64,000 nucleotides of DNA from a virus (taxonomy: Duplodnaviria > Heunggongvirae > Uroviricota > Caudoviricetes). Location of the stretch: positions 1 through 64,000 of the IMG/VR virus record IMGVR_UViG_3300028920_001945; one strand, given 5' to 3'. The first letter of the stretch is position 1. The number at the start of each line of letters is the position of its first letter. Positions 7,617-62,810 of the stretch are shown here, in pieces. The notes beneath the pieces were generated by a model. That model did not search any database. It had not been told where the DNA came from and saw only the letters and a program-made list of their open reading frames with translations. A program made the position numbers and the translations under genes.

Positions 7617-7619
7617 GCA

Positions 7620-14536: not shown

Positions 14537-14783
14537 TGTGATGACTATAGAAAACATAGCTAGAGCACTTGCAACTCTAATTAGGTCAGGTTACTCACCA
14601 AATAATATAACATTAGATCCTAATATAGTTGCAGATTTATTTAGTAAAGAAGTTATCTTAAAGGATGGAAATAAGGTAATGATGTCCATGGAAGAATACC
14701 ATGAGTATGTATTAAATTTTAATCCTCCAGATAAAGACAATCTGGAGGAATTTAATAATAAGAAAATGGTGTTAGAGTTATGA
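14526..14783 (+). CDS. hypothetical protein
   Basis: 85 aa. Ends KKMVLEL with an ATGA overlap. Confidence 0.45.
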   Translation: MKSDVMTIENIARALATLIRSGYSPNNITLDPNIVADLFSKEVILKDGNKVMMSMEEYHEYVLNFNPPDKDNLEEFNNKKMVLEL

Positions 14784-15133
14784 ACTATACATATAGTAAT
14801 AATACATCTAATATTAGTTGGACATCCACTACATCAACTAGCGATGGTACATATTGGGAATATAAACCTAAGAAATATAAGGATTGGTCATACAATAGAT
14901 TTAAAGAATGGGAAATATATCCTTGGAGACCATCTAAAGAAGATAGAGGTCATGGAAAATCAGTAGATCCAAGAGAAATATTTAATGAAGTTACAGCTAT
15001 AAAGACTAAGGATGGAGAGAATCTAGATTTAACTTATGGGCAAATCTATGAGATAGAAAAGATGACTGGTAAATCCATAGAAGAATTAACTGAAGAAGAA
15101 ATCAAAGAACAACTTATGGTATTGGAATTATAA
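14780..15133 (+). CDS. hypothetical protein
   Basis: 117 aa. Ends LMVLEL. Confidence 0.45.
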   Translation: MNYTYSNNTSNISWTSTTSTSDGTYWEYKPKKYKDWSYNRFKEWEIYPWRPSKEDRGHGKSVDPREIFNEVTAIKTKDGENLDLTYGQIYEIEKMTGKSIEELTEEEIKEQLMVLEL

Positions 15134-15348
15134 TGTTAGGTGAATGTAAACCAAACGATTCTATAACAGCAGATGATTGCAATAGATTCAAGGCAGATAA
15201 ATTCAAGGTTAGTTTTAATTTAATGAATGGAATGGAAGTAGAATTATCCTTTGAAGAGTATATATTCTATGTACTCATGTATCAAAGATTACCTTCAGAA
15301 TGTAATATAGATGAATTCAAAGAATATAAATTGATGTGTGAAATATGA
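15133..15348 (+). CDS. hypothetical protein
   Basis: 71 aa. Confidence 0.4.
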   Translation: MLGECKPNDSITADDCNRFKADKFKVSFNLMNGMEVELSFEEYIFYVLMYQRLPSECNIDEFKEYKLMCEI

Positions 15349-15614
15349 AATTAAATAAAGGACCAGATGGATTTCTTTACGAAGCTACTTTACAAGATGG
15401 AGAAGAAATAGTAGTATTTCCGAGAGCAACAATACCATCCTGGTATCAATCAAATGATAGTAAGAAGGAAGAACAACGCACTTATGCATATTTATTATTT
15501 AGGAATAGTAAAAATGTATATAAAATTACTAATGAAGACTTTGAACAACTCAAAGATGATGAATTTGAATCTGAACAAGACTTAGTGGATAAACTATTGG
15601 TGGCTAAAATATGA
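15345..15614 (+). CDS. hypothetical protein
   Basis: 89 aa. Confidence 0.45.
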   Translation: MKLNKGPDGFLYEATLQDGEEIVVFPRATIPSWYQSNDSKKEEQRTYAYLLFRNSKNVYKITNEDFEQLKDDEFESEQDLVDKLLVAKI

Positions 15615-15746
15615 GAATCAGATGGATATTTGATAAACATAAAAAGACTATCAGTGATATATTGGTGAGATGGAAATGTTAATAGTATGTCATAATTGTG
15701 GTTGGAAAAGAGATACATCAGAACTGGATAAACATAATATAACTAA

Positions 15747-18346: not shown

Positions 18347-19015
18347 ATGACAAATATAAATATATTAGGTACTATAGCAATTGTTCTTGCTCTTATAGCA
18401 GTAGCTCTTGGAGGCTATGCAATATACGATAAGAAAGGAGAACAAGGAGAAGTAGGACCTATAGGATTAGAAGGTCCAATGGGACCAATGGGTCCACAAG
18501 GAGAGCAAGGTCCACCTGGAGAAGATGGCCTTGATGGAATTGATGGAGTCGATGGTGCAGTAGGACCACCTGGACCTAAAGGTAATAAAGGTAATCAGGG
18601 TAATCAAGGAAATCCTGGAGAGCAAGGCCCACAGGGAGAACCTGGAATTGATGGTGTAGATTTAGAACCTAATGATGCACCAGTAATAACTGTAGATGAT
18701 ACAGCTAGTTATGTAGAAGGCTGTGGAAAATATGATGATTATTGGTTCTCTATAGCTATAACTACAACTGATATAGAAGACGATTCCAGAAAAATCTGTT
18801 TATATTACAGATGGGATGAAATTGATCCATGGAATCTAGAGAAATCTTGGCCATTCTTAACTAATGCAGACATCATAACTGATTGGGAAGAGAATAAAGG
18901 TAATGAATATGGAGAAAATACAGAAACTCTTTATTGGTTAGTAGAAGTAATGGATGGAGAGAATCTAGTTTATCAGCAAGGTGAAACATCCTTAACAAAA
19001 CCTTTGTGTCCATAA
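18347..19015 (+). CDS. collagen-like triple-helix repeat protein with N-terminal membrane anchor
   Basis: About 35 uninterrupted G-X-Y triplets ([31 protein letters not shown]...). N-terminal hydrophobic helix. C-terminal about 110-aa globular domain. Confidence 0.85.
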
Positions 19016-47299: not shown

Positions 47300-48189
47300 G
47301 CTTTGATTTAGCTATGGCCTTTGATAAGGCAGAATATCTAAATCCTCAAATATATATGCTCATAGATACCTTAAAGGATAATATTCCTAAGGATACAATA
47401 CTTCATATTAATACAAATCGTTCCGATGACAATGAACTACTACAATATATCCATAAGTGTTTAGGGACGATAGTATATAAAAAACCTCCATTTGAGGATT
47501 TAAAGTCAAGGTGTCAATATATGTTTCATGCATTTGAAATTGAAACAGATAAAGAATGGATAATGAAAATAGAAGGGGATCTGCTGGTACTTAAGAATCT
47601 TAACGAATTTGATAAGTTATTGAAGCCAGAGTATGATCTGGTTATAGAACCTGAGAATAGAAAAATACATTCAGATATTATCGCCACAAAACTTTGGAGA
47701 TTAATATATAATCGTCTTGATATAAAACAACCTAAGGATAAAATTGTTTTTAGGGAGAACAATGAAGAAGGTTTACCATTGTATGGAACTGGATTAGTTT
47801 GTGTAAAGAACAAGCATCTAGAAACTATTAATAATAGATGGATTCCATTAACTAAAATTTGTGAGGACTGGATTCAATTTAATATTCATCCAAATGAATT
47901 TGCCTTTACTGCTATGACATATGATGAAGGATGGAACACTTACTTATATCCTCCAAAATATAAATTCAATCCAATAGGACATTTCAGAAAGGGGGATTAT
48001 CCTTCAACTGAATTGATAGAGAACTGTAAATTACCAGAAGATACAATTATCTTTGATTATCATAGACCTGAATGGTTGATGCATGTTGCTAAATATAATG
48101 AGAATATTCGTAATATTATAAAACGAAATAAGAAATATATACCAGAAGACTGGTGGAATCTAACTACAGGAGATTTTCAGGAAGGATGA
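47296..48189 (+). CDS. hypothetical protein in glycan cluster
   Basis: 297 aa with no clear motif. Possibly a glycosyltransferase-like fold. Confidence 0.45.
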   Translation: MSFDLAMAFDKAEYLNPQIYMLIDTLKDNIPKDTILHINTNRSDDNELLQYIHKCLGTIVYKKPPFEDLKSRCQYMFHAFEIETDKEWIMKIEGDLLVLKNLNEFDKLLKPEYDLVIEPENRKIHSDIIATKLWRLIYNRLDIKQPKDKIVFRENNEEGLPLYGTGLVCVKNKHLETINNRWIPLTKICEDWIQFNIHPNEFAFTAMTYDEGWNTYLYPPKYKFNPIGHFRKGDYPSTELIENCKLPEDTIIFDYHRPEWLMHVAKYNENIRNIIKRNKKYIPEDWWNLTTGDFQEG

Positions 48190-48731
48190 AAAATCATAAG
48201 CCTACAACACAATTCATAAAACGTATTTATAAAAAACAGAACTTAATTGGAGTAGAAGTAGGTGTATGGAAAGGTAGTAATGCTAAAGATATGTTAGAGT
48301 TTCTACCCATAAAGAAATTATATTTAGTAGATCCATATCTACATTATAATAATTATAATGATTATAAAGAAGACGATATGGATGAGATGTATCTGAAAGT
48401 TAAAAAGAAATTTGAACCATTTGGAGATAAGGTTGAATTAATTAGAAAAATGTCCTTTGATGCATTAGATAATATTCCAGATGAATGTGATTTTATTTAT
48501 ATAGATGCAAACCATGCATATGAATTTGTTAAGAAGGATTTAGAATTATTTTATCCAAAAGTAAAAAAAGGTGGAATATTGGGAGGTCATGATTATCATT
48601 ATCTAAGACATCCAGGAGTAACCAAAGCAGTAGATGAATTTTGTAATAATATTAATAGTAAGATTTATAGTATGATTGAAAGTATAGATAGTAGAGGATT
48701 AGAAGTATCAGATTGGTGGATGATTAAATAA
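48153..48731 (+). CDS. class I SAM-dependent O-methyltransferase (TylF/MycF-like)
   Basis: LIGVEVGVWKGSNA SAM motif I and DANHAYEFV motif. Confidence 0.7.
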   Translation: MESNYRRFSGRMKNHKPTTQFIKRIYKKQNLIGVEVGVWKGSNAKDMLEFLPIKKLYLVDPYLHYNNYNDYKEDDMDEMYLKVKKKFEPFGDKVELIRKMSFDALDNIPDECDFIYIDANHAYEFVKKDLELFYPKVKKGGILGGHDYHYLRHPGVTKAVDEFCNNINSKIYSMIESIDSRGLEVSDWWMIK

Positions 48732-49924
48732 TGAGAGTATTCAAGAAAATATCAACTCCTTTTGTAGATTCAAGACCTGATAAAGCTATTATAGTAGTGA
48801 ATGGAATAGACCCACAAGTAAATACTATAAAGGCTTTTATACAGGCGTGTGACGATTATAAGATCAGTTATACAGTTTTTGTTAATAAGACAGATTGTTT
48901 AGAGGATGAAAAGTATACAGTTGGTTATATTAAGCAATCTCTAAATTTAAAAGATATTCAGTTTGGCTCTGCTAAAACTGGAAAGGGATTCAAAAAATTA
49001 GCAACATATCTAGACCTGTGGTTTGGTAAGAGAATTATAGTTTTGGGTGTATTTAATTCTGGAAAGACATCTTTAATAAATAGATTAACAGGAGAAAACC
49101 TTAAGGTAGGAACAATACCTGGAACTACTCTAGAATTTACAGAAATACCTGTTAATGGAACAGTTAAGAATATAGGAAAAGAAAATGAGGAAAAGATAGA
49201 AACAGTCTTAATAGATTCTGTAGGTCAATTAATAGATATACATAAACCCATGATGGTATCTATAGATTTTAGTGGTTGTATAACCGGATATGAAAAAATA
49301 AATAAAGTATTTGAAGAAGAAATATTGGGATTAGTTGAAACTCAAGAAAGAGTTAAGAATGATATATTTACAGTAGTTAAGGTTATTAAGCAAGCTTTAT
49401 CAGAAGGTAATAAAATTATAATTACAGGAGCTGGAGCATCAGCTTTAGTAGCTAAAGAGATGGCTGGGCAAGGAACAGAATGTGGTTTACCAATTTTGGT
49501 ATTTACTAATGATGGAGCTGAATTACAACCTGTAACATTCTCAAAGGGTCTAGGAGAACAAGAAGGTGGTTTATCTAAATATATAGCTAATGCAATTAAT
49601 CCAGGAGATATAGTTATAGGAATTAGTGCATCAGGTGGTACTGGATTTGTATTTGATACCTTAAGAAGAGGTAGAGAAAAGAAAGCAATTCCCATAGCTA
49701 TAACAGAGAATTCTGATACACCTTTAGGACATGCAGCTCTATATATAATAAAAAGTGAAGCTAAACCAGAAGGACCCAGTAGTTCCAAAATACAAACAGC
49801 CCATTTGGTTATAGGCCATGCCTTAATATTAACACTAGCAGATGAACTAGGAGTATCAGCTGATGAATCAGTTGGATATATGTTACCAGAAATATTAGAA
49901 AATAAAAAAATGGGAATTAAATAA
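48731..49924 (+). CDS. circularly permuted GTPase fused to SIS (sugar isomerase) domain
   Basis: The order G4 VNKTD, then G5 SAKTG, then G1 GVFNSGKTSLINRL, then G2 GTT, then G3 DSVG is the cpGTPase topology (YlqF/YqeH-like). The C-terminal half has SIS motifs IIITGAGAS...VIGISASGGTG. Confidence 0.6.
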   Translation: MRVFKKISTPFVDSRPDKAIIVVNGIDPQVNTIKAFIQACDDYKISYTVFVNKTDCLEDEKYTVGYIKQSLNLKDIQFGSAKTGKGFKKLATYLDLWFGKRIIVLGVFNSGKTSLINRLTGENLKVGTIPGTTLEFTEIPVNGTVKNIGKENEEKIETVLIDSVGQLIDIHKPMMVSIDFSGCITGYEKINKVFEEEILGLVETQERVKNDIFTVVKVIKQALSEGNKIIITGAGASALVAKEMAGQGTECGLPILVFTNDGAELQPVTFSKGLGEQEGGLSKYIANAINPGDIVIGISASGGTGFVFDTLRRGREKKAIPIAITENSDTPLGHAALYIIKSEAKPEGPSSSKIQTAHLVIGHALILTLADELGVSADESVGYMLPEILENKKMGIK

Positions 49925-50283
49925 TGACAGAATATTCTATAGAAGAACATAAATGGGAAATAAAGGGAATACCAGATGAAGATGGTATATTATTTAAGAT
50001 GTACCTTTCAGATATAGGAGAAATTGGAAGAGCACGAGTAGTTAAAATATTTAATGATACTCGACAACAATATTATGCTCTCTTAGAGGATTTAATATTA
50101 GAAGAAGAATATAGAGGTATAGGATTTGGATATATGTTTGTAAAACAGATTATTCAAGAAGTGGAAAAAGAAGGATGCTATAAGTTTATAGCTACATCCA
50201 GATTCGGTAGAGATATGATACATAAATTTTATATGGATTTAGGTTTTAAAGAGTGGGGCTACGAATTTAGAATTGATTTATGA
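49924..50283 (+). CDS. GNAT-family N-acetyltransferase
   Basis: EEYRGIGFGYMFVKQ acetyl-CoA motif A. 119 aa. Confidence 0.55.
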   Translation: MTEYSIEEHKWEIKGIPDEDGILFKMYLSDIGEIGRARVVKIFNDTRQQYYALLEDLILEEEYRGIGFGYMFVKQIIQEVEKEGCYKFIATSRFGRDMIHKFYMDLGFKEWGYEFRIDL

Positions 50284-51179
50284 ATATAGGATATTTTAAT
50301 GCTAGAGGCATAAATGATGTTGAACATTGGTTTGCTTTAGAAATAGAAGAATTACTTAGAAGAAAACATAATGTTGTAAATTTTTCATTTAGAGGACAAC
50401 AACCAAATAGAGAGCATATCCAGTGGATGGATTTTGCTCATTTTCATTTTGCTCAAGTAGCAGACCACTATAAGAGAATTGGAGTTCCATTTGCTATAAG
50501 TCCTCACGCTAATGATATATTTGTGGATAATGGAGCTACTCTTATAAAGGCTAGCAAACATCCCAAATGTAAATTTGTAACATACCAATCATTTTATCAT
50601 AAGAGAAAATTTGAGGAATGGGGAATAACTAAACCTCTAGTATATTTACCAATGTGTTGTAGAGTAAATTTATTCAAGAGAGAACATCCCACATTACATT
50701 TAACAGGAGATAAAATAATAGCGGGTGGAAGATTAATACCTAAAAAGGGATTAGATAGATTATCTTCAGTAGATAATTTAGTTATATTTGGTACTGGTCC
50801 ATTAGAGGATGAATTAAAGGAGAAATTACCTAAGGCTGAATTTGTTGGATGGCAGAGTGGTGATGTATTAAAATATACATATTCAAGAGGATGGATATTT
50901 TTAAATCCTAGTATAGTTACTGGAGATGGAGATTCAGATGGTATTCCTAACACCATTAAAGAAGCTATGCTTATGGAGATGCAAGTAATATCAAGTCCAG
51001 TAGCTGGTATACCTGAATTAGAACAGGTAACATTATTTGATGATTGGGATAATATAAATGAATGTATAGAGACTATACCTAGAATTCCTAACAAGAAGGG
51101 AAGGAAGGAGATATTAAATACCTATAGTCCTAGATCATGTGTAGATAGATTATTAAAGGCAATAGAGGAATATAATTGA
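50280..51179 (+). CDS. glycosyltransferase (GT-B, group 1-like)
   Basis: GGRLIPKKGLDRL and an EAMLMEMQVISSPVAGIPE region. Confidence 0.6.
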   Translation: MNIGYFNARGINDVEHWFALEIEELLRRKHNVVNFSFRGQQPNREHIQWMDFAHFHFAQVADHYKRIGVPFAISPHANDIFVDNGATLIKASKHPKCKFVTYQSFYHKRKFEEWGITKPLVYLPMCCRVNLFKREHPTLHLTGDKIIAGGRLIPKKGLDRLSSVDNLVIFGTGPLEDELKEKLPKAEFVGWQSGDVLKYTYSRGWIFLNPSIVTGDGDSDGIPNTIKEAMLMEMQVISSPVAGIPELEQVTLFDDWDNINECIETIPRIPNKKGRKEILNTYSPRSCVDRLLKAIEEYN

Positions 51180-51883
51180 TAGATGCTATAATTTTAGCTG
51201 CAGGAAAAGGCACAAGATTAATGCCCATAACTCAAGATAAACCAAAAGCTATGGTGGAAGTTAAAGGTAAACCTATAATAAGTTGGATCCTAGATGTATT
51301 AAAACAAATACAAATAAAGAAAGTATTTATAATAACAGGATATAGAGAAGGAACTCTAAAATCGTATATAAAATATAATTATAAGGATATGGATATAAAT
51401 TTCCTTCATCAAAAAGAATTAACTGGTACTGCAGATGCAATAGCATTAGCAGAAGGTTATATTGGAAATAACTTTTTAGTATTATCCGGAGATACTATAT
51501 ATAAACCAGAAGAACTCATGAAATTAATGGAATGGGAAAATTCTCTTTTATATACAGAACAAAATACTAGATTATATGAATATGGGACCATAGATCTAAA
51601 TACCAATAAATTACCAGAAGAAGGATTTTATTTGAAATTCATAAATGAAAAAACAACTAGACCAACAACTAATAATATTAATTGTGGAGTATATCACTTT
51701 AATAGAGAAGTTTTTAGATATATAAGAGATACAGAATATGATGGGAGATTCAGTGAAAAGATTATAACTAATACAATAAATATGATGATAGATGATGGTA
51801 TTGACTTTAGAGGTTTTTATGTTAAGGAATTAAATGAAATATCCAGACCAGAGGATATAGAGAATATAGAGAATAGATTATGA
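51176..51883 (+). CDS. sugar-phosphate nucleotidyltransferase (HddC/GlmU-like)
   Basis: AIILAAGKGTRLMPIT signature. Confidence 0.8.
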   Translation: MIDAIILAAGKGTRLMPITQDKPKAMVEVKGKPIISWILDVLKQIQIKKVFIITGYREGTLKSYIKYNYKDMDINFLHQKELTGTADAIALAEGYIGNNFLVLSGDTIYKPEELMKLMEWENSLLYTEQNTRLYEYGTIDLNTNKLPEEGFYLKFINEKTTRPTTNNINCGVYHFNREVFRYIRDTEYDGRFSEKIITNTINMMIDDGIDFRGFYVKELNEISRPEDIENIENRL

Positions 51884-53124
51884 AAATACTATTGTCTACC
51901 TTACCAAATGAAGGACAATATATAAGTTGGTTAACTAACCCAACATTTAGAGTGGAAGTTAATAAATATATGCCTCTAGGTATATTATCATTAGCAACAA
52001 ACCTCCCACAAGAACACGATATTAAAGTTATAGATCCAGCTAGTGAGGATTGGTCTATAGATAAAACAATTTCGATTATAGAAAATGAAGAGCCTGATAT
52101 ATTAGGAATATCTGCAGTAACAAGACGTGTATATGCATTAAAGGAGATTCTTTCTAGGATAAATGTTCCATATATTACAGTAGGAGGACCACATGCAACT
52201 CATTATTCAGAGCAAATATTAGAATATGGTGCTGATGCAGTATTTGTTGGACCATTAGCTGATAATGAATTTAGATACAATTTGAATAAAAAAGCTAGAG
52301 GTATAATATATTGTAAGACTGGTATAAATGAAATTAAATTCCCAAATAGAGAATTTTTAGAAGTAAATAAATATTTTCCAAAGGCACATAAACTATTTGT
52401 AGCTGATAATCGTCTTCCTATGTTTTCTAGTATAGGATGTCCAAATAAATGTCTTTTTTGTAATGTACAAACTAAGAAAATACAGTTAAAAAATTCAAAT
52501 ATAATACTAGATGAAATGGAATATTTAAAATCATTAAATTGTAATAGTGTTCATATGTTGGATGATAATTTCAATGTAAGTAAAAAACATTTAAATAGCA
52601 TCATTAAGGAATTTAAAGAAAGAGACTTTAATATAGAATGGAGTGGTAGAGGTCAAGTTAAAATGGATCTATCTATGTTATCTAAATTAAAGGAAGTTGG
52701 TTTTAAAAGAATGCATGTTGGTATAGAAGCCCTAGATGATAATATATTAAAATACTTTAATAAAAATCAAACAGTTAATGATATAGAAAATTTTTGTAGA
52801 GAGATGACAAATTTAGATTTGGATATTATAGGATACTTTATATTTGGAAGTCCAGTAGAAACAAAAGAATATAGAAAGAATGTTATCAAGAAAATAAGAG
52901 ATTTAAATATAAATAAAGTTCTTTGTCATGTATTATTTCCTCAACCAAATACTGGATATTATTTTGAATTATTAAATAAGGGTACATTCAAGGAAGATTA
53001 TTGGAAAAAATATATGGAAGGTCCCACTCCAAATTATGAGTTGCCATACCCGTTTGGGGAAGAATATAAAAATGAGATATGGAATTTTATGGAAGATTTG
53101 AAAAAGGAATTTAAATATATATAA
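51880..53124 (+). CDS. B12-binding radical SAM enzyme (class B, methyltransferase-like)
   Basis: N-terminal cobalamin-binding-like domain, then CPNKCLFC (Cx3Cx2C). 414 aa. Confidence 0.75.
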   Translation: MKILLSTLPNEGQYISWLTNPTFRVEVNKYMPLGILSLATNLPQEHDIKVIDPASEDWSIDKTISIIENEEPDILGISAVTRRVYALKEILSRINVPYITVGGPHATHYSEQILEYGADAVFVGPLADNEFRYNLNKKARGIIYCKTGINEIKFPNREFLEVNKYFPKAHKLFVADNRLPMFSSIGCPNKCLFCNVQTKKIQLKNSNIILDEMEYLKSLNCNSVHMLDDNFNVSKKHLNSIIKEFKERDFNIEWSGRGQVKMDLSMLSKLKEVGFKRMHVGIEALDDNILKYFNKNQTVNDIENFCREMTNLDLDIIGYFIFGSPVETKEYRKNVIKKIRDLNINKVLCHVLFPQPNTGYYFELLNKGTFKEDYWKKYMEGPTPNYELPYPFGEEYKNEIWNFMEDLKKEFKYI

Positions 53125-54221: not shown

Positions 54222-55235
54222 ATGATAATAAGTAGAGCTCCTGTAAGAATCACTTTAGGTGGTGGAGGAACTGATTTACCATCCTTCTATGAAAAAGAGG
54301 AAGGATTCTTACTAGCAGGAACAATAAATAAATATGTTTTTATAAGTATAAATAAACAATTTAATAAGACTTATAAAATTAATTATTCTCATCAAGAAGA
54401 AGTAGAAAATGTTGAAGATATTAAACATAATCTGTTTAGAGAAGCATTAAAATTATATAATATAGAACCCGGTATAGAAATACATTCTATGGCTGATATT
54501 CCAAGTGGTAAAGGATTAGGTTCATCGGGAGCATTCTTGGTAGCATTATTAAACTCATTACATTTCTACAAATATGGTCATGAAGCTCATCCAAGACAAT
54601 TAGCTGAAGAAGCATCTAAAATTGAAATCGAAGTCCTTAAAGAACATGAGGGTAAACAAGACAAATACATATGTGCTTTTGGTGGAGTTAAGGGATTGAC
54701 ATTCCATAAGAATGGGGATGTATCGGTAGCTCCATTGATTAATGAAGATCGTATATTACATGAACTAGAAGATCATCTTATAATGTTCTCATTAGATAGA
54801 TCTAGAAAGGGTAAAGCATCCGATACTCTAAAAAATTTAGATGATAAATTAATAGAGAGAGACGTGGATTATATAGAAAATATGAAGAAAATAAAAGAAA
54901 TTGGTCTAGAGTCTAAAAAAGCATTAGAAGATTATGATTTTGATAGATTTGGTCTATTAATGGACCATCATTGGGCTTGGAAAAAATTGTGGCATCAAGA
55001 TACAACAAATTCTAAAATAGATGAGATGTATGAATATGCTAAAGAATTAGGAGCATTTGGAGGTAAAACAATAGGAGCTCCAGGTGGAGGCTTTATGATA
55101 TTCTATCATCCAAGTATAGATAAGGGAAGATGGGAATTCATAAGAAAAATGAAAGAAAAATATAATATTAAACAAACTGAATTTAGATTTGTAGATGAGG
55201 GAGTTACTTTAGTTTGGGGAGAAAATGAAATCTGA
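54222..55235 (+). CDS. GHMP sugar kinase (D-glycero-D-manno-heptose 7-phosphate kinase HddA-like)
   Basis: GGGTDLPSFY N-terminal motif and PSGKGLGSSGA GHMP ATP motif. Confidence 0.75.
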   Translation: MIISRAPVRITLGGGGTDLPSFYEKEEGFLLAGTINKYVFISINKQFNKTYKINYSHQEEVENVEDIKHNLFREALKLYNIEPGIEIHSMADIPSGKGLGSSGAFLVALLNSLHFYKYGHEAHPRQLAEEASKIEIEVLKEHEGKQDKYICAFGGVKGLTFHKNGDVSVAPLINEDRILHELEDHLIMFSLDRSRKGKASDTLKNLDDKLIERDVDYIENMKKIKEIGLESKKALEDYDFDRFGLLMDHHWAWKKLWHQDTTNSKIDEMYEYAKELGAFGGKTIGAPGGGFMIFYHPSIDKGRWEFIRKMKEKYNIKQTEFRFVDEGVTLVWGENEI

Positions 55236-55791
55236 ATTTGAGAAGTTTCACGATGCATTAGACTTAGTGCAATATGAGCAATTTGGAGAGTTAATGAATA
55301 TTATTGATGCTCTAGATGAGCTCAGAGAAAACAATGGAACTATCTATATATGTGGTAATGGAGGCTCAGCTAGCATAGCTACCCACATAGCTTGTGATTT
55401 AGCTAAGATAGCTGGAATAAATGCTATCAGCCTTTGTACAAACATACCCTTAATAACTGCTATAACTAATGATGAGGGGTTTGATTACATATTTGAAGAT
55501 CAACTAAGGGGTATGGAATATGGAGATTTACTTATGGTTATAAGTGTACATGGAACTATACCTAGAGATGATTATGAAGTATGGTCACAAAATCTAGTTA
55601 GAGCTGTGGATTATACAAGAAATTATGGAAATAAAGCTATATCCCTAACAGGATTTGATGGTGGTATGTTAAAGGATATAACAGATTATAATATTAATAT
55701 CAATATAGAATCTACACCAATAGTGGAATCGATGCATTCAATTATAGGACATATTATAGCATTTAACTTAAAGGAGGTTGATAGAGAATGA
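55225..55791 (+). CDS. gmhA: sedoheptulose-7-phosphate isomerase (GmhA, SIS domain)
   Basis: ICGNGGSASIATHIACDL signature. 188 aa. Confidence 0.85.
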   Translation: MKSEFEKFHDALDLVQYEQFGELMNIIDALDELRENNGTIYICGNGGSASIATHIACDLAKIAGINAISLCTNIPLITAITNDEGFDYIFEDQLRGMEYGDLLMVISVHGTIPRDDYEVWSQNLVRAVDYTRNYGNKAISLTGFDGGMLKDITDYNININIESTPIVESMHSIIGHIIAFNLKEVDRE

Positions 55792-56456
55792 CTGAATTAT
55801 ATATAGACTCAGCTAATTTAGATGAGATAAAGATAGTAAATGATTTAGAAATCATAACTGGAGTGACAACAAATCAAAAGATATTCTCCAGAGAAAAAGG
55901 AATAGACTTTGAGGCTCATTGTAAACAAATATTAGAAATGGTAGATCCCTATCCAGTTAGTTTAGAGGGTCCTAATGATGCTAGTGATTTACTTATAAAA
56001 GCAGAAGAATATAATGATTGGGGAGACAATGTTGTAATTAAGGTACCAATGTTACCTAGATTTGATAGTATATGGGTATTAAAGGAATTGGATAATAAAG
56101 GAATATATACCAATGCAACTACATGTATGGACCTCAATCAAGTGTTTTTAGCAAGTGAGGCTAGAGCAAATTTTGTCAGTTTATTCTATTGTAGAATGAA
56201 GGATGCTTGGGGTGGTGAATATGCTAGAAGTACAATAGAGAAGGCAATGGAATTATTGGATGGTAGTGACACCCAATTAATAATTGGAAGTATAAGACAT
56301 CCAGATGATGTTCATGAATTATTAGGATTACAACCCGATATAATAACAGTACCATATCAGATTATGAGTAATATGTGTACTAATAAAGTAACTGAGGAAG
56401 TATTAAGAGACTTTGATAAAGCCTGGGGAGAATTTAAGAAACATGAAAGGATGTAA
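55788..56456 (+). CDS. transaldolase/fructose-6-phosphate aldolase (TalC/FSA-type, about 220 aa)
   Basis: MTELYIDSANLDEIK, GVTTNQ and VVIKVP Schiff-base Lys region. Confidence 0.85.
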   Translation: MTELYIDSANLDEIKIVNDLEIITGVTTNQKIFSREKGIDFEAHCKQILEMVDPYPVSLEGPNDASDLLIKAEEYNDWGDNVVIKVPMLPRFDSIWVLKELDNKGIYTNATTCMDLNQVFLASEARANFVSLFYCRMKDAWGGEYARSTIEKAMELLDGSDTQLIIGSIRHPDDVHELLGLQPDIITVPYQIMSNMCTNKVTEEVLRDFDKAWGEFKKHERM

Positions 56457-57134: not shown

Positions 57135-58159
57135 ATAAGAGAGAAACTAAAATTATAGAAGAATCCTTAGATAAACTTAAGGATCTTAATGTTCTAGTCG
57201 TAGGGGAATTAATAGTAGATAAATACTGCTATGGTAAATATCTAGGAAAAATGAGAAGAAAATCCATAATGGAATTTATGGAATATGAAGATAAATATTT
57301 CTTGGGTGGAGCTGGAATAGTTGCTAATCATATAGTAGATTTTGTTAATAGTGTTAGTCTTCTTAGTTTAATAGGAGATAATAATAACTATATGGAAATT
57401 ATAGAAGAATATTTAGATGAGAGAATAAATCCCTTATTATTACATAAAGATGATTCAGATACTCCTATCAAAAAACGATTTATAGATAAAGAAGAATTTA
57501 TAACTTTATTTAAGAGTTCTAATATTAATGATAAACCCATAAATAAAAAATTATCAAAAAATATATCGGATTTTATAAATGGTGTTGCAGATAAGTATGA
57601 TCTAATAATAGTTATGGATTATGGACTAGGAATGATGAGTCCAGAAATAATTAATAGTCTAGAAGAGAAATCTAAATTCTTAGCTGTTAATACTCAAATT
57701 AATGTTGAGAATAGAGGATACAATACAATAGATAAATATAATAAAATGGATTATGCCTGTATTAATGAGGATGAATTAAGATTAGTTTGTAAGGAGAAAT
57801 ATGGAGATGTTAAGGTATTAGTTAATAAGCTAATAACCTTAATAGATACTAATTATATTTCTGTAACTAGAGGACCATACGGTTCTGTGGTCTCTTCTAA
57901 TGGAGATTATGAAGAGATAGAGGCATATGCTAATGATAGAAGATATGTAGTGGATACCATGGGATCAGGAGATTGTTATTTTGCAATATCAGCTTTATTT
58001 GCATGCATAGGATGTTATAGTAGGATAGTGGGATTAACAGGAAATATTGCTGGAGCGATACATTCCAATGTAGAGGGAAATACTCCATCAGTTAATCTAA
58101 AAACATTTAAAGAAAAAATAGGAGAAATTACAGATGATCGATTCATATTCTTTAGATAA
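57131..58159 (+). CDS. PfkB-family carbohydrate kinase (RfaE domain-I-like)
   Basis: N-terminal VLVVGELIVDKY and DTMGSGDCYF anion-hole motif. Confidence 0.75.
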   Translation: MNKRETKIIEESLDKLKDLNVLVVGELIVDKYCYGKYLGKMRRKSIMEFMEYEDKYFLGGAGIVANHIVDFVNSVSLLSLIGDNNNYMEIIEEYLDERINPLLLHKDDSDTPIKKRFIDKEEFITLFKSSNINDKPINKKLSKNISDFINGVADKYDLIIVMDYGLGMMSPEIINSLEEKSKFLAVNTQINVENRGYNTIDKYNKMDYACINEDELRLVCKEKYGDVKVLVNKLITLIDTNYISVTRGPYGSVVSSNGDYEEIEAYANDRRYVVDTMGSGDCYFAISALFACIGCYSRIVGLTGNIAGAIHSNVEGNTPSVNLKTFKEKIGEITDDRFIFFR

Positions 58160-59177
58160 TCATAAGTTAATGTATCATCCAGAACGAGTACATAAATGGA
58201 TGAATGGAGACACAATCTATCCCATATTTGCAGAGATCTCTCTTACAAGTAGATGTAATAATAGATGTCTTTTCTGTGCATATAACTTTTTCTTAAAATA
58301 CAAATCCATAGATATAAATACGGAAACAGTAAAGAAGACCCTAGATAGTATGGCAAATTGTGGAGTTAAATCAGTTATGTTTGGTGGAGAAGGAGAACCT
58401 CTCTTACATAAAGATGTAGCTGATTTAATTATATATGCAAAAAATCTAGGATTAGATGTAAGTTTAACTACAAATGGAGTATTATTAGATAGTATAACGG
58501 CTAAGAGGATATTACCTTACTTATCTTGGGTTAAGTTTAGTATAGATGCAGGAAGATCAGATGAATATGCTTATCTACATGGAACCATTAAAGAGAACTA
58601 TAAGAAAGTTTTAGATAATGTATCCAGGTCAAGCTTCTTAAATAGATTAAAGGAATATGATTGTACTATAGGAACTCAAGCTCTGTTATTTAAGGAGAAT
58701 ATAGATAATCTAGAAGAGCTTATTAAGTTTTTGGTATATGCTAAGCCAAATTATTTAGTAATAAAACCTTATTCAGAAAATGAGAATCAAAGTATAAAGA
58801 CTTTACATCAACCCACTAAAAGACAACTAAAGGACTTTAAGAAGATGTTAAAAAAATATGAAGATAAATTAAATATTATATTCAGAGAAAAAGCCTTTGG
58901 GAATATAGTAGATGACAAACCATATAATATCTGTTATGCCAATGAATTTATGGCATATATAAATACCCTGGGAGATGTTTATAGTTGTACTAACTTTCTA
59001 GGATTTGAAGAATATAGCTATGGAAATATATATAAAGATAGCTTTGAAAATATATGGAAGAACAAAAAGGAAATTAATATTGATATAAGTAAATGTAGAA
59101 AAGCATGTAGATTAGATCCAATAAATAGATATTTATGGCGACTAAAAAACCCACAAAACCACGACAATTTTATTTAA
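58134..59177 (+). CDS. radical SAM enzyme with SPASM/twitch C-terminal domain
   Basis: CNNRCLFC Cx3Cx2C motif, GGEGEPLL, and C-terminal Cys cluster. Confidence 0.8.
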   Translation: MIDSYSLDNHKLMYHPERVHKWMNGDTIYPIFAEISLTSRCNNRCLFCAYNFFLKYKSIDINTETVKKTLDSMANCGVKSVMFGGEGEPLLHKDVADLIIYAKNLGLDVSLTTNGVLLDSITAKRILPYLSWVKFSIDAGRSDEYAYLHGTIKENYKKVLDNVSRSSFLNRLKEYDCTIGTQALLFKENIDNLEELIKFLVYAKPNYLVIKPYSENENQSIKTLHQPTKRQLKDFKKMLKKYEDKLNIIFREKAFGNIVDDKPYNICYANEFMAYINTLGDVYSCTNFLGFEEYSYGNIYKDSFENIWKNKKEINIDISKCRKACRLDPINRYLWRLKNPQNHDNFI

Positions 59178-59890
59178 GAAAAAAAATATTAGAATTGGCT
59201 ATGGAGACTAAGAATGGTCACATAGGAGGATCTCTATCCTGTATAGATGCAATAGATACAATATACAGCATAAAGAAGGATGAAGATAAATTTCTTTTAA
59301 GTAAGGGACATGCAACGTTAGCATTCTATACTATATTAAGAGAGCAAGGATTTAAACCCGATATTACAAAATTACATCCCGATATAGATATTAAGAATGG
59401 AATAGAAATAAGTTCAGGCTCATTAGGTCATGGACTTCCAATAGCAGTAGGTATGGCTCTATCAAAAAAGATTAAGAATGAGAATGGAATAATTTATGTA
59501 TTATTAGGAGATGGAGAATGTCAAGAAGGTACAACTTGGGAATCTCTATTATTTGCTGCTCAGCATAATTTATATAATCTCTGTATAATAATAGACTATA
59601 ATAAGTTACAGGCCATAGATTATGTTGAAGATGTTCTAGATATTGATAGTTTAATTAATAAAATTACTGCATTTAATTGTACTGCAATGCCAGTATTAGA
59701 TGGTCATAATACTGATAGTATAAAGAATGCCCTACAAAATACATCTAACTTCACCGTTAGAGAACCAAAAGTAATTATTCTACATACAATAAAGGGAAGT
59801 GGAGTTAATTATATGGAAAATGGTCTAGAATGGCATAATAAGTTGCCAGATAAAAAACAATTAAAAAAAGCTATGGAGGAGTTATCATGA
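59135..59890 (+). CDS. transketolase N-terminal (ThDP pyrophosphate-binding) subunit
   Basis: GHATLAFY, GSLGHGLPIAVGMAL and LGDGECQEG motifs. Confidence 0.85.
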   Translation: MATKKPTKPRQFYLRKKILELAMETKNGHIGGSLSCIDAIDTIYSIKKDEDKFLLSKGHATLAFYTILREQGFKPDITKLHPDIDIKNGIEISSGSLGHGLPIAVGMALSKKIKNENGIIYVLLGDGECQEGTTWESLLFAAQHNLYNLCIIIDYNKLQAIDYVEDVLDIDSLINKITAFNCTAMPVLDGHNTDSIKNALQNTSNFTVREPKVIILHTIKGSGVNYMENGLEWHNKLPDKKQLKKAMEELS

Positions 59891-60366
59891 GAAGGAGATT
59901 TGGAGAATGGATAGCCAAACAATCTTTAGATGATGATAGTATTTATCTTCTAGTTGGAGATATAGGATATGGAATATTTGATAAATTTAGAGAACAATCA
60001 CCCGATAGATTCATAAATGTTGGTTGTTGTGAACAGACCATGATAGGAATTGCAGCTGGTATGGCTTTAAGTGAATTGAAGCCTTATGTCTATACAATAA
60101 CTCCATTCTTAATAGAAAGAACCTTTGAGCAGATTAAAATAGATATAGACCTTAATAATGTAGATGTTAAACTTATAGGTTATGATGATTATGCCTCTCA
60201 AGGTCCTACCCATGAATTAGTTAAGAATGGAAACTATATGAAGATGTTTGAGAATATAGAAAGCTTTTGGCCAGTAGACTCTGATGAAGTTGAAGATTTT
60301 TTAAGATATTCTTATAAAAATAAAAAACCCACTTTTATGAGATTAAGAAAGGATAGGGGATGTTAA
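59887..60366 (+). CDS. transketolase pyrimidine-binding domain subunit (truncated, 159 aa)
   Basis: FINVGCCEQTMIGIAAGMAL...PFLIERTFEQIKIDI. The usual C-terminal domain is absent. Confidence 0.7.
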   Translation: MRRRFGEWIAKQSLDDDSIYLLVGDIGYGIFDKFREQSPDRFINVGCCEQTMIGIAAGMALSELKPYVYTITPFLIERTFEQIKIDIDLNNVDVKLIGYDDYASQGPTHELVKNGNYMKMFENIESFWPVDSDEVEDFLRYSYKNKKPTFMRLRKDRGC

Positions 60367-61140: not shown

Positions 61141-61677
61141 ATGAAACAGATAAAGTTACATTTGGGATGCGGTAAGAAATACATACCAGGATTTATACAT
61201 ATAGATATAGAAAAATATGATCACATAGACTATAATACAGATGCATCAGATCTACACATGTTTAAAGACAATTCAGTTGATTTAATATATTCAGCACACC
61301 TTCTTGAACATTATAAGAGAAGAGATATAGATACTGTATTAAAGGAATGGTATAGAGTCCTAAAACCAGACGGTACCCTTAGATTAGCAGTACCTGATTT
61401 TGAAGCATTAATAAAGATATATAATAAATATAAAGATTTAGAGATGATAATGGGACCTCTTTATGGTAATAATGGAAAGTTAGATTCTCACTATATAACA
61501 TTTGACTTTAGATATTTATGTAAGAGATTAAGATTAATAGGCTTTAAGAATATACAAAGATATAACTGGAGAGAAACAATACATAAAAATTATGACGATT
61601 ATTCTCAGAGTTATATACCCCACTTAGATAAAGAGAATGGAATACTAATAAGTTTAAATGTTGAGGCAACTAAATGA
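61141..61677 (+). CDS. class I SAM-dependent methyltransferase
   Basis: LHLGCGKKYIPGFIHIDI motif I. Confidence 0.65.
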   Translation: MKQIKLHLGCGKKYIPGFIHIDIEKYDHIDYNTDASDLHMFKDNSVDLIYSAHLLEHYKRRDIDTVLKEWYRVLKPDGTLRLAVPDFEALIKIYNKYKDLEMIMGPLYGNNGKLDSHYITFDFRYLCKRLRLIGFKNIQRYNWRETIHKNYDDYSQSYIPHLDKENGILISLNVEATK

Positions 61678-62810
61678 GATCCGAATGGTCACCTGGAAAG
61701 AAGTGGAATCCATTCAATAGCTATAAATTATTAGCACAAGTATATAAATGGAGAGATATAGAAAGAGGAAAGAGAATACCATCTCCAACATTAGTTACAA
61801 TTGATCCAACTAATAACTGTAACTTTAATTGCATATGGTGTAATAGTGACTATATATTAAAGAGAAGAGATCAATATATATCTAAGAAATCTCTATTGAA
61901 TATTGCAGACTTCTTACCAAAATGGAGAAACGGTGTAGAGGCCGTTTGTATAGCAGGAGGAGGGGAATCCCTATTAAATCCAGCAACTTCAGATCTTATA
62001 GATAGATTAGTTGATAATGGAATAGAGGTAGGTGTAGTTACAAATGGAACTAATCTTAATAAGTATAAAGAATCATTATCAAAATGTACTTGGGTTGGAG
62101 TATCAGTAGATGCAGGAACACCAGAAACATTTCAGAAAATAAAGAAAGTAGATTACTTTGATAAAGTGATATCAAATATAAAAGAACTTATAGATTATTC
62201 TAATAAAAAAGATACAAGATTAGGAACGGACAGATCTGGATATGGAGTTAGTTATAAATATCTTTTACATCCATATAATTGTCAAGAAATATTAAAATCA
62301 GTTAAAATTGCTAGAGATATAGGATGTAAGAATTTTCACTTAAGACCTATGGGTATACCATGGGATAAATTAAATGAAGGTTCAGAAGTATTCGATTTAC
62401 CTTCTATAAGTACATTTCAAGATCAATTGGAGCAATCAAGAAAATATGAAACTGAAAAATTTGGGGTATATGGAGTTACTCATAAATTTGATTCTAAATT
62501 AAATATAGCTAATAAATTCAAAGAATGTTATGCAATCTTCATGACATGTGCCTTTATGCCAGGAACAGATGGCAACAAGAATAACTTTACTGTTGGTTTA
62601 TGTTGTGATAGAAGAGGAGACGAAAGATTAGAATTAGCTAGGAATATTTCCTCTATGAGCCAATTAGATGACCTCTGGGGCTCAGAAAAACATTGGGACA
62701 TATTTGATAACATTAACATGAAAGATTGTCCTAGATGTACGTATCAGCCTCATAATCAAATATATGAACATGTTATAAAGAATGATAGTATGACTTACAG
62801 ATTTATATGA
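61674..62810 (+). CDS. radical SAM enzyme
   Basis: CNFNCIWC Cx3Cx2C and AGGGESLLNP SAM-binding motif. Confidence 0.8.
   Translation: MRSEWSPGKKWNPFNSYKLLAQVYKWRDIERGKRIPSPTLVTIDPTNNCNFNCIWCNSDYILKRRDQYISKKSLLNIADFLPKWRNGVEAVCIAGGGESLLNPATSDLIDRLVDNGIEVGVVTNGTNLNKYKESLSKCTWVGVSVDAGTPETFQKIKKVDYFDKVISNIKELIDYSNKKDTRLGTDRSGYGVSYKYLLHPYNCQEILKSVKIARDIGCKNFHLRPMGIPWDKLNEGSEVFDLPSISTFQDQLEQSRKYETEKFGVYGVTHKFDSKLNIANKFKECYAIFMTCAFMPGTDGNKNNFTVGLCCDRRGDERLELARNISSMSQLDDLWGSEKHWDIFDNINMKDCPRCTYQPHNQIYEHVIKNDSMTYRFI

Follow-up and report, generated by a model that had tools for sequence, protein, structure and literature searches.

The fusion gene and its authenticity

What is a circularly permuted GTPase doing in the same polypeptide as a sugar isomerase (SIS) domain, and which pathway does the combined protein serve? 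The question is raised by the window analysed here (the whole stretch of 64,000 nucleotides, positions 1 to 64,000 of the Caudoviricetes record IMGVR_UViG_3300028920_001945), a virus-like genome that carries such a fusion within an extensive cluster of sugar-nucleotide genes.

48731..49924, + strand: GTPase-SIS fusion gene, complete, ATG start, 397 aa

The reading frame overlaps both of its neighbours in the sugar cluster by 1 nt (TAATG at 48729-48733 and 49922-49926). A protein search returned 493 matches, and the best 120 of these 493 are all full-length, show 52-90% identity and have the same domain pair. The identical fusion protein, with identical neighbouring genes, is found on two independent metagenome contigs, and conservation within the family continues unbroken across the domain junction in the alignment. 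The initial annotation, made from sequence, took the fusion to be genuine while naming a frameshift between two separate genes as the event that would undo it. Such a frameshift is excluded by the many full-length homologues, by the 55 loci in GTDB species-representative genomes at which the fusion recurs and by the independent contigs. More broadly, an artefact, whether a frameshift from sequencing or assembly that fused two genes or a chance likeness of motifs, found no supporting evidence; it is countered by hundreds of independent full-length homologues, including those in complete genomes of cultured methanotrophs, and its probability is negligible.

The permuted G domain

48731..49279, + strand: circularly permuted G domain, residues 1-183 (profiles and fold), ordered b4-a3-b5(G4)-a4-b6(G5)-a5-b1(G1)-a1-b2-b3(G3)
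48734..48760, + strand: basic N-terminal motif RVxKKISTPF, conserved; R2, K5 and K6 invariant
48884..48895, + strand: G4 motif NKTD, residues 52-55, guanine specificity; K53 invariant, N52 and D55 99% conserved
48968..48976, + strand: G5 motif SAK, residues 80-82; S80 93% conserved
49046..49069, + strand: G1 P-loop GVFNSGKT, residues 106-113; G106, N109, G111, K112 and T113 invariant
49118..49129, + strand: G2/switch I motif PGTT, residues 130-133; invariant
49160..49201, + strand: 14-residue insertion in the b2-b3 loop, residues 144-157; a gap in at least 95% of 86 family sequences
49214..49270, + strand: G3 motif DSVGQ, residues 162-166, then the switch II-to-SIS connector QLIDIxKPxMVSIDF; D162, G165 and Q166 invariant

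All motifs for GTP binding and hydrolysis are intact and lie in one G domain in the order G4-G5-G1-G2-G3; no second set of G motifs is present in the sequence or in the family alignment. Pfam RsgA_GTPase matches residues 17-129 collinearly from G4 to G1 (40 bits, cutoff 30) and MMR_HSR1 matches residues 101-219 (41.4 bits, cutoff 21.9), while the YqeH model TIGR03597 aligns with residues 49-142 and the sequence of the YjeQ structure 2yv5 with residues 17-129. A fold search with the predicted structure recovered the permuted topology in three dimensions. Motif order, collinear profiles and fold thus agree with the proposal that the N-terminal half is a permuted GTPase akin to RsgA, YlqF and YqeH, and the profiles matched are those of GTPases, not of the non-GTPase P-loop family that would have refuted it. 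The domain reaches no equivalog cutoff among the profiles of permuted GTPases, YqeH included, and the fusion protein therefore belongs to none of the named subfamilies.

Two positions deserve mention. The P-loop fits GxxNxGK[ST], with N109 invariant in 86 sequences. Asparagine at this position is typical of K+-activated GTPases and, judged from the alignment, the family possesses this feature of cation-dependent enzymes. The glutamine directly after DxxG, Q166, is likewise invariant in the 86 sequences. In the ribosomal permuted GTPases a hydrophobic residue replaces the catalytic glutamine at this point, a feature of HAS-GTPases. Switch II continues directly into the SIS domain. In the predicted model (pTM 0.60) both folds are recognizable by fold search, as anticipated. 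The switch regions have pLDDT <50 and the inter-domain geometry is uncertain; confidence is also low over the 144-157 insertion.

The structural neighbours that the fold search gave for the G domain are all ribosome-assembly factors. This speaks for the alternative, advanced earlier, of a ribosome-directed factor, here taken as one that acts in ribosome assembly and whose SIS domain would report sugar-phosphate status to ribosome biogenesis. The basic conserved tails (R2, K5 and K6 at the N-terminus, K392, K393 and K397 at the C-terminus) would suit this role, as would the Chloroflexota loci, where scpB, cmk, plsC and a DUF512 radical SAM gene give the gene a housekeeping setting. However, Q166 departs from the hydrophobic residue usual in ribosomal permuted GTPases, and Pfam and NCBIfam profiles detect no RNA-binding accessory domain, the SIS domain being the sole other one; OB, zinc-finger, KH and helical RNA-binding domains are absent by Pfam. 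The gene also resides within sugar operons of viruses, Patescibacteria and archaea and behind a ribozyme that responds to glucosamine 6-phosphate (GlcN6P). Neither genomic context nor domain content supports a ribosome-directed factor, and we consider it improbable.

The SIS domain and the register of its first helix

49286..49885, + strand: single SIS domain, residues ~186-385 (profiles and fold), sugar isomerase/sugar-phosphate-binding
49457..49480, + strand: first SIS helix with E243, Q247 and E250 at i, i+4 and i+7; 99%, 100% and 100% conserved
49625..49642, + strand: phosphate-binding loop SASGGT, residues 299-304; S299, S301, G302 and G303 invariant; aligns with STSGKS of GmhA
49766..49819, + strand: loop PEGPSSSK, residues 346-353, and helix with H358 and H363; invariant
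49904..49921, + strand: C-terminal tail KKMGIK; K392, M394, G395 and K397 invariant

The C-terminal half is a SIS domain, as had been proposed: Pfam SIS_2 (residues 204-325, 40.7 bits, cutoff 27) and SIS (residues 279-366, 43.5 bits, cutoff 25) exceed their cutoffs, like the two GTPase families above, and the fold is that of SIS proteins. Its further assignment to the GmhA/KpsF type did not hold. The GmhA equivalog TIGR00441 gives 31.7 bits against a cutoff of 209, NF010546 gives 34.9 against 276, and the KpsF/KdsD models give 23 bits against cutoffs of 204-505. The best NCBIfam match is the MurQ subfamily NF003915 (48.2 bits), also far under its cutoff of 168, and MurQ TIGR00274 scores 36.6 bits against 302. 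By fold the half is equally near GmhA, MurQ, KdsD and the RpiR/MurR/NanR sensors, with 4s12 as the best Foldseek match (E 3e-12). No amidotransferase match was obtained with Pfam or NCBIfam profiles, and there is only one SIS domain.

Is this domain catalytic? The first SIS helix aligns with the region of the catalytic Glu of GmhA and MurQ, in an ambiguous register on which HMMER and hhalign differ. The catalytic Glu of GmhA is Glu65 in E. coli numbering (PMC4697000). In an ungapped HMMER register against Burkholderia pseudomallei GmhA, Q247 occupies the catalytic Glu position, E243 and Q247 standing opposite His64 and Glu68; hhalign and a HMMER alignment to 1tk9 place E243 on the catalytic Glu instead. 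Counting without gaps from the GxGxS motif puts the MurQ catalytic Glu on Q247, while hhalign pairs the invariant E250-C251 with the E-C of a homologue that was checked as MurQ-like. MurQ has its catalytic Glu in the E-C motif and, in addition, a second Glu, close to whose position E276 and E278 are located. H363 falls on the GmhA catalytic His, His180 in E. coli numbering, in all alignments.

An alternative to an enzyme is a sensor whose SIS domain only binds an amino-sugar phosphate such as GlcN6P, on the model of MurR, NanR, RpiR, GKRP or DiaA, and whose G domain is the output switch acting on GlmS and/or GlmM, a function like that of RapZ, a P-loop NTPase that senses GlcN6P, or of GlmR/YvcK. 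Non-catalytic DiaA-type proteins have Gln or Ser at the GmhA catalytic Glu position (PMC4697000), which Q247 would match in one register, although the other registers offer E243 or E250; the fold, moreover, is as near the RpiR/MurR/NanR sensor domains as the enzymes. Against a sensor, the 86 distinct sequences, which come from bacteria, archaea and virus-like contigs, agree without exception at ~35 positions of the SIS half; five of these are acidic and two are His, and binding alone usually needs fewer. An intein in the PEGP|SSSK loop, the ease with which a self-contained enzyme, rather than a partner-specific regulator, would be carried by virus-like genomes and spread across domains of life, and an Aenigmatarchaeote locus at which the fusion occupies the glmS slot and glmS is lacking all weigh in the same direction. 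We therefore rank an enzyme as the most likely function and a sensor as a less likely one, although the latter stays a realistic possibility.

Spread and conservation of the family

The fusion has hundreds of full-length relatives at 44-90% identity. Their hosts comprise Patescibacteria, Chloroflexota, Bipolaricaulota, Thermotogae-labelled MAGs, DPANN archaea and virus-like contigs, and among cultured organisms Methylobacter and Methylomicrobium. The search for the same fusion in other genomes, suggested at the outset, was thus answered by 493 matches and 55 GTDB loci. Virus-like members are known from metagenome contigs only; no relatives were found in IMG/VR, and a tblastn search of GenBank phages gave none either. 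Far from being rare, the architecture defines a widespread family filed under generic database names. Clustering at 50% identity reduces it to one full-length representative, and scores drop from more than 120 bits within the family to ~70 bits where the generic SIS or GTPase proteins begin. In the clustered search, stand-alone copies of either half appeared as fragments only.

The residues of motifs G1-G4 (N52 and D55 at 99%) are invariant in the 86 sequences, as are S299, S301, Q247, E250, E276, E326, E347, S350, S351, H358, H363, K392 and K397 and, as read from the alignment, purifying selection acts on both halves. Inteins typically home into functionally critical sites. In one relative (P0123) an intein splits the P-loop between N109 and S110, and in another (P0122) the PEGP|SSSK loop is split between P349 and S350. 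The literature search found no description of a GTPase-SIS architecture, in keeping with the initial impression that it was undescribed. The fusion protein represents a real, widely conserved and unstudied two-domain family. A role in defence was considered and dropped, PADLOC giving only a match to LeoA over 28 residues at the P-loop (E 1.8e-4).

A glmS ribozyme and hexosamine genes accompany the fusion

Of the 43 loci scanned, 22 have a glmS ribozyme (RF00234; 37-68 bits, gathering score 37) on the same strand, 96-177 nt ahead of the fusion gene. Twelve of these ribozyme loci have glmS 20-48 bp downstream of the fusion (817 bits, cutoff 381). At least six others have no glmS and their next genes are on the opposite strand, so that the ribozyme, whose core is intact in these loci, can control the fusion gene only. 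A glmS ribozyme before the gene in many bacteria links the protein with the supply of amino sugars, and not with heptose or ribosomes. The searchable literature treats this ribozyme as a regulator of glmS, and no report of one before a non-glmS gene was found, although the survey of McCown et al. 2011 may include such cases. A recurrent neighbour cluster with no Pfam match proved to be a spurious antisense ORF over the ribozyme region.

Hexosamine genes recur beside the fusion as well. GlmM or an archaeal GlmM-like gene adjoins it in seven loci, in three arrangements and in several separate clades or phyla (565 and 541 bits, cutoff 447). The Aenigmatarchaeote operon reads GlmU-type, fusion, GlmM-type and the locus contains no glmS; with this order the fusion stands where glmS would be expected. 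In Chloroflexota a complete GlmS is encoded beside the fusion gene, so that there the fusion is no simple GlmS replacement. In the Patescibacteria loci the neighbours of the gene are glycosyltransferases and flippases, and the closest relatives of the window's protein lie inside nonulosonic-acid clusters of the NeuB/NeuC/NeuA type. Nonulosonic-acid routes begin at UDP- or GDP-GlcNAc, and the Campylobacter legionaminic-acid pathway uses GDP-GlcNAc and PgmL, which is GlmM-type. Campylobacter PtmF was considered as a stand-alone SIS isomerase analogue from that pathway and dropped, as it is listed as an oxidoreductase. Across the family the conserved link is hexosamine phosphate, by way of the glmS ribozyme, glmS, glmM and nonulosonic-acid clusters.

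The window and the heptose pathway

48153..48731, + strand: Methyltransf_24/TylF-like methyltransferase, upstream neighbour; recurs near the fusion in virus-like relatives
49924..53124, + strand: downstream genes for a GNAT acetyltransferase, a GT1 glycosyltransferase, a sugar-1-P nucleotidyltransferase and a B12-binding radical SAM enzyme
54222..56456, + strand: HddA-like heptose-7-P kinase, separate GmhA-like SIS gene (55225-55791) and transaldolase, the window's own heptose route

Position in a heptose cluster had been the ground for linking the protein to heptose. That position is real in the window, where GmhA-like, HddA-like, NTP-transferase, transaldolase and transketolase genes are grouped, but it is specific to it: among the loci examined the heptose association is seen only here, no HddA-like kinase occurs at other family loci examined gene by gene, and the contexts there are hexosamine, nonulosonic acid or glycosyltransferases. 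At another locus of the family a separate SIS_2 gene lies 9 kb from the fusion gene. A GTP-gated isomerase of the GmhA/KpsF type, dedicated to the heptose pathway and acting on sedoheptulose 7-phosphate (S7P) or arabinose-5-P, has further to contend with the low GmhA and KpsF/KdsD scores given above, with the stand-alone GmhA-like gene that the window already holds (85.8 bits on GmhA, above the score of the fusion protein) and with a ribozyme that senses GlcN6P and not a heptose phosphate. We judge this specific reading very unlikely.

A model for the function of the family

Based on these observations, we propose, tentatively, that the best explanation is a GTP-gated sugar-6-phosphate enzyme of the GlcN6P (hexosamine-phosphate) branch that feeds glycan synthesis. 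The broad class suggested earlier, a GTP-gated sugar-phosphate isomerase or sensor, is retained, while the link to heptose gives way to the GlcN6P branch. According to the model, the family would work at the GlcN6P entry branch of nucleotide-sugar synthesis. A sugar 6-phosphate of the Fru-6-P/GlcN-6-P node would be bound by the SIS domain and probably converted there, in an aldose-ketose or an aminating reaction, and the GTP or GDP state of the G domain may gate this activity through switch II. Architecture, conservation, gene associations and ribozyme are direct observations, whereas the substrate, catalysis as against sensing, and control by GTP are inferred. With a glmS ribozyme ahead of the gene, a shortage of GlcN6P would allow the protein to be made; in the window, a virus-like genome, it might supply more precursor for the virus's own glycan cluster. 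Two further points count against the model. TRAFAC-class GTPases are switches, and none is known to have a direct role in sugar chemistry. Furthermore, many family loci have no ribozyme, namely those of methanotrophs, Patescibacteria and a second Bipolaricaulota clade as well as the window, in which no glmS ribozyme was found.

A bolder version would make the protein a GTP-dependent GlcN6P-forming enzyme, a GlmS analogue in which the permuted GTPase takes the place of the glutaminase domain and ammonia or another nitrogen donor is used. We hold this to be doubtful. If true, the fusion would serve some bacteria under direct glmS-ribozyme control with no glmS next to it, and DPANN archaea and Patescibacteria as part of glmU/glmM operons; large viruses would have acquired it as a source of precursors for their glycans. 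No permuted GTPase outside ribosome assembly, and no gene other than glmS behind a glmS ribozyme, would have been known before it.

What are the implications? The GlcN6P pathway is a cell-wall and antibiotic target. A ribozyme before another gene, at six or more loci with no nearby glmS, points to a new component of GlcN6P homeostasis, and the association opens a direct and testable way to the function of a protein that Patescibacteria, DPANN archaea, Chloroflexota, Bipolaricaulota, methanotrophs and large viruses all encode. As cultured Methylobacter and Methylomicrobium carry the gene, genetics and biochemistry are feasible.

Comparison with known systems

The G domain shares its motif order, collinear profiles and topology with RsgA/YjeQ, RbgA/YlqF, YqeH and the eukaryotic Lsg1, Nog2 and Nug1 and, as in the RsgA/RbgA/YqeH class, a C-terminal domain is joined directly after switch II. 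The P-loop Asn is also that of the K+-activated permuted GTPases. To our knowledge, all characterised circularly permuted GTPases are ribosome-assembly factors. They bear RNA-binding accessory domains, whereas the fusion has a metabolite-binding SIS domain instead and a context of sugar metabolism; a conserved permuted GTPase wired to such a domain would carry the class into metabolism.

Among SIS proteins, the fusion differs from GmhA and DiaA in scoring far below the family cutoff, in the residues of its first helix and in a family context that is not heptose. With MurQ, GKRP and RpiR/MurR/NanR it shares the motifs GAGxS, E-C, ISASG, ITxNxDTPL and GPE, and their ligands, amino-sugar 6-phosphates, agree with the hexosamine context. 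MurQ, however, runs ~100 residues past its SIS domain and the fusion ends ~12 residues after it; in contrast to the RpiR/MurR/NanR sensors, the fusion has no HTH, is below all cutoffs and has a GTPase attached. GlmS consists of a glutaminase domain and two SIS domains, whereas the fusion has no glutaminase and one SIS domain and is not specifically GlmS-like by sequence. Nevertheless, its GTPase stands where GlmS has the amidotransferase domain, and the upstream glmS ribozyme (22 of 43 loci) is a GlmS-like trait. RapZ and GlmR/YvcK combine a P-loop nucleotide module with a sugar-phosphate module and steer GlmS output by amino-sugar status. RapZ acts through small RNAs and RNase E, and nothing in the fusion protein suggests RNA binding of this kind. 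The resemblance to RapZ and GlmR/YvcK is one of function only, with no relationship in sequence or fold.

Architecture and predicted fold

The gene that the initial annotation described as a circularly permuted GTPase fused to a SIS domain is present exactly as claimed, and both of its ends are embedded in its neighbours. Its ATG shares one base with the stop of the upstream methyltransferase gene and its stop shares one base with the ATG of the downstream GNAT gene (TAATG in both cases); the fusion is therefore an integral member of a tightly packed operon-like array.

Coding sequence and GTPase motifs of the fusion
48731..49924, + strand: fusion ORF, 397 aa
Residues 52-55: G4, NKTD
Residues 80-82: G5, SAK
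Residues 106-113: G1, GVFNSGKT
Residues 130-133: G2, PGTT
Residues 162-166: G3, DSVGQ

Read in the sequence, the GTPase motifs run in the permuted order that had been reported, and Pfam matches above the gathering scores agree. RsgA_GTPase covers residues 17-129 in a single collinear match from G4 through G1, which is possible only if the domain is permuted; MMR_HSR1 covers residues 101-219, SIS_2 residues 204-325 and SIS residues 279-366. In NCBIfam and PDB sequence searches the N-terminal half matches YqeH, RsgA and YjeQ, and the C-terminal half GmhA and MurQ. The whole-protein AlphaFold2 model (pLDDT 78.7) is confident for the cores of the two domains; the switch regions I and II, the insertion at 144-154 and the N- and C-terminal ends have low confidence. 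Its G domain is ordered b4-a3-b5(G4)-a4-b6(G5)-a5-b1(G1)-a1-b2-b3(G3), after which a long helix (186-224) starts the SIS domain. Modelled separately, residues 1-185 (pTM 0.75) bear out the permuted fold: the 34 best PDB matches are circularly permuted GTPases only (RsgA/YjeQ, Lsg1, Nog2, RbgA/YlqF, Nug1 and Mtg1), over 150-190 aligned columns. The b2-b3 loop holds a 14-residue Lys/Glu-rich insertion (49160-49201, residues 144-157), modelled with low confidence and a gap in at least 95% of 86 family sequences.

The window and its sugar cluster

What kind of genome carries this gene? The window encodes a family-B DNA polymerase, ribonucleotide reductase, UvsX-like recombinase, primase and RNA ligase. 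It also has two tRNAs and a collagen-like tail-fibre protein; its genes are nearly all on one strand and most ORFs are without family. The window probably comes from the genome of a large virus or phage, an assignment held at this strength because no capsid or terminase gene was identified in it. The collagen-like protein, through its matches to many phage tail-fibre families, supports a putative tailed-virus origin. The tRNA-His overlaps the beginning of a mechanical ORF (7620-7934).

Features of the window
7617-7690: tRNA-His(GTG), ARAGORN; absent from Rfam output at gathering score
17890-17963: tRNA-Gln(CTG), ARAGORN and Rfam at gathering score
18347-19015: collagen-like-repeat protein, 222 aa
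51176-51883: nucleotidyltransferase of the putative heptose route
54222-56456 and 59135-60366: transaldolase, split transketolase, GmhA-like isomerase and HddA-like kinase of the putative heptose route
51880-53124, 58134-59177 and 61674-62810: B12-binding or other radical SAM enzymes and Methyltransf_24

Within a long sugar cluster, the fusion is preceded by an epimerase, an unknown gene and Methyltransf_24, and followed by GNAT, GT1, NTP-transferase, B12-radical SAM, epimerase and HddA-like kinase genes; then come a separate GmhA-like SIS protein, transaldolase, PfkB kinase, split transketolase (N and pyrimidine-binding parts in separate ORFs), sulfotransferase and methyltransferases. These genes give the appearance of a self-contained nucleotide-heptose route in a virus-like genome. 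The heptose cluster in which the fusion had been placed is real, but a separate GmhA-like gene is already there, matching GmhA at 85.8 bits against 31.7 bits for the fusion. A heptose-specific GmhA role for the fusion is on this evidence very improbable.

Distribution and conservation of the family

The same fusion was sought, and found, in other genomes. A word-indexed search returned 493 matches, the best 120 of which are all full-length (~385 aa), 52-90% identical and carry the same Pfam pair. The species-representative genomes of GTDB that carry relatives belong to Patescibacteria, Chloroflexota/Anaerolineae, Bipolaricaulota, Thermotogae-labelled MAGs and the DPANN archaea Parvarchaeota and Aenigmatarchaeota; at ~44% identity, cultured strains have one too (Methylobacter luteus, Methylobacter sp. 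and Methylomicrobium lacus). Database names of the members are generic ('50S ribosome-binding GTPase', 'SIS domain-containing protein', 'GutQ/EngB'). As judged from its sequences, the family is tight and isolated. When 1.84 billion cluster representatives were searched exhaustively with an HMM, the whole family proved to be reduced, at 50% identity, to a single full-length representative. Fragments rank next, and scores then drop from >120 bits to ~70 bits, the level of generic SIS or GTPase proteins; this search returned neither intermediates nor either half as a stand-alone protein.

Every G1-G4 residue is invariant among 86 distinct sequences; so are the C-terminal K392xMGxK397 and many SIS residues, which include S299, S301, Q247, E250, E276, E326, E347, S350, S351, H358 and H363. 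Inteins typically home into functionally critical sites. In one relative (P0123) an intein interrupts the GTPase P-loop (GVFN/C...HN/SGKT), and in another (P0122) the invariant SIS loop (KPEGP/C...HN/SSSK), so that both loops are independently marked as important.

A glmS ribozyme upstream of the fusion

Of 43 family loci scanned with Rfam, 22 have a same-strand RF00234 match that reaches the gathering score (37-68 bits) and lies 96-177 nt ahead of the fusion gene. Fifteen of these loci belong to Chloroflexota and five to Bipolaricaulota, and two are Thermotogae-labelled. In 12 of the 22 the order is ribozyme, fusion, glmS; in four the contig ends too early to show whether glmS is present. In the remaining six, the next genes are convergent and no glmS lies within the locus sequence, so that the fusion is the only gene the ribozyme could control. 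The cleavage-site and core motifs are intact in all six, L033 lacking only a peripheral hairpin. The loci of methanotrophs, Patescibacteria, archaea and a second Bipolaricaulota clade that were scanned, and the window itself, hold no glmS ribozyme.

Ribozymes in loci without glmS
L010: 9596-9824
L018: 6213-6436
L019: 5861-6088
L021: 3922-4140
L030: 5711-5923
L033: 9641-9813

L033, a Thermotogae-labelled MAG, also has a c-di-GMP-I-GGC riboswitch ~8 kb from the fusion (18833-18912, - strand; 67 bits, gathering score 59), which is probably unrelated to it.

Genomic context across the family

A complete glmS (817 bits, cutoff 381) follows the fusion by 20-48 bp on the same strand in 12 Chloroflexota loci. 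In several of that phylum (L011, L023, L031 and others) the ~5-10 kb upstream have a conserved housekeeping gene order.

Conserved gene order in Chloroflexota
scpB, M23 peptidase, cmk, plsC-like acyltransferase, DUF512 radical SAM, glmS ribozyme, fusion, glmS, M32 carboxypeptidase, GT4

Phosphoglucosamine mutase (glmM) lies 0-1.9 kb from the fusion in seven loci; the GlmM scores in Methylobacter luteus (L045) and L008, 565 and 541 bits, exceed the cutoff of 447, and L003 and L052 have an archaeal-GlmM-like mutase. Three arrangements of the two genes occur, spread over several distinct clades: the methanotrophs, the metagenome contig L003, which bears a sigma-70 gene, a MAG labelled Pseudomonadota and an Aenigmatarchaeote. 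In the last, the fusion occupies the usual glmS slot, since it is flanked by a GlmU-type gene (NTP_transferase + LbH) before and a GlmM-type gene after it.

In Patescibacteria the neighbours of the fusion are a flippase and PMT_2, GT2 and GT4 transferases. The closest relatives of the window are virus-like contigs with small ORFs on one strand, where the fusion lies within NeuB / Epimerase_2 / CTP_transf_3 / DegT / Hexapep nonulosonic-acid clusters. Nonulosonic acids derive from UDP-GlcNAc, and legionaminic acid from GDP-GlcNAc via a GlmM-type mutase. As in the window, B12-radical SAM and Methyltransf_24 genes are often nearby (L005 11149-12495, L068 825-2252, L071 12226-13638); their recurrence suggests unusual C-methylated or otherwise modified sugars. 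One such contig (L005, 200 kb) also encodes a replication factor C-like AAA+ protein with an intein (14227-15648). Another (L067) has a 1018-aa STT3/AglB-type oligosaccharyltransferase beside its nonulosonic-acid cluster (553-3609), a hint that part of this clade may come from archaea or their viruses.

A probable role at the hexosamine-phosphate node

The ribozyme, the adjacency to glmS, glmM and glmU-type genes and the GlcNAc-derived glycan clusters together make a function of the family at the hexosamine-phosphate node probable. The glmS ribozyme switches expression off in response to glucosamine-6-phosphate (GlcN6P), and a gene placed behind it is therefore needed when GlcN6P is scarce. 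This placement argues for a protein that makes or promotes GlcN6P, and against one that consumes it.

How might the two halves cooperate? In permuted GTPases the domain after G3 is attached directly to switch II. Here an invariant connector (QLIDIxKPxMVSIDF) runs straight into the first SIS helix, and the nucleotide state of the G domain would thus be well placed to control the SIS pocket or the oligomeric state. The invariant P-loop Asn109 is a hallmark of K+-activated GTPases, and the invariant Gln166 after DxxG is like the Ras-type catalytic Gln and unlike the residue of ribosomal permuted GTPases. A role at the ribosome itself is very improbable.

The SIS half may be catalytic, a proposal to which we give somewhat less than an even chance. 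In its favour are the very many invariant polar residues, five of them acidic and two of them His, the intein within the PEGP/SSSK loop, the invariant Lys-rich tail, the distribution over viruses, bacteria and archaea, and the filling of the glmS slot in the archaeal operon. Alternatively, it could be a non-catalytic regulator or sensor, which we consider rather unlikely. It is supported by the fold, in which this half is as near to the sensor SIS domains of NanR, RpiR and MurR as to the enzymes, and by the full GlmS that Chloroflexota retain beside the fusion. HMMER's ungapped register also speaks for it, since it puts the invariant Gln247 where GmhA has its catalytic Glu, and DiaA-type non-enzymes are reported to have Gln or Ser at this position (PMC4697000). 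In hhalign the position falls instead to E243 when GmhA is the partner, or to E250-C251 when the MurQ E-C motif is; as E243, Q247 and E250 occupy i, i+4 and i+7 of one helix in the model, a carboxylate is near the canonical catalytic position in any register. Other functions take the remaining probability. The cultured methanotrophs carry the gene, which makes the hypothesis directly testable.

Comparison with known families

The permuted GTPase-SIS fusion of the initial annotation stands, and its emphasis shifts from heptose to the GlcN6P and glmS ribozyme context of the family. The link of the family to GlcN6P homeostasis and this ribozyme, which comes from comparative genomics, gives it an interest beyond the heptose-cluster reading. 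In the literature searched, with incomplete coverage, we found no description of a glmS ribozyme without a downstream glmS, no mention of one together with a SIS or GTPase gene and none of the GTPase-SIS architecture, of which the initial annotation was likewise aware of no description. The G domain shares motif order, profile match and fold with circularly permuted GTPases, but falls below every equivalog cutoff and has neither their RNA-binding domains nor their hydrophobic post-G3 residue. The C-terminal half belongs to the SIS superfamily and falls outside GmhA, KdsD/KpsF, MurQ and GlmS, so that the GmhA/KpsF type first assigned to it is not upheld. The fusion defines a new family that joins two known folds and whose regulatory association was unexpected; it is not categorically new.
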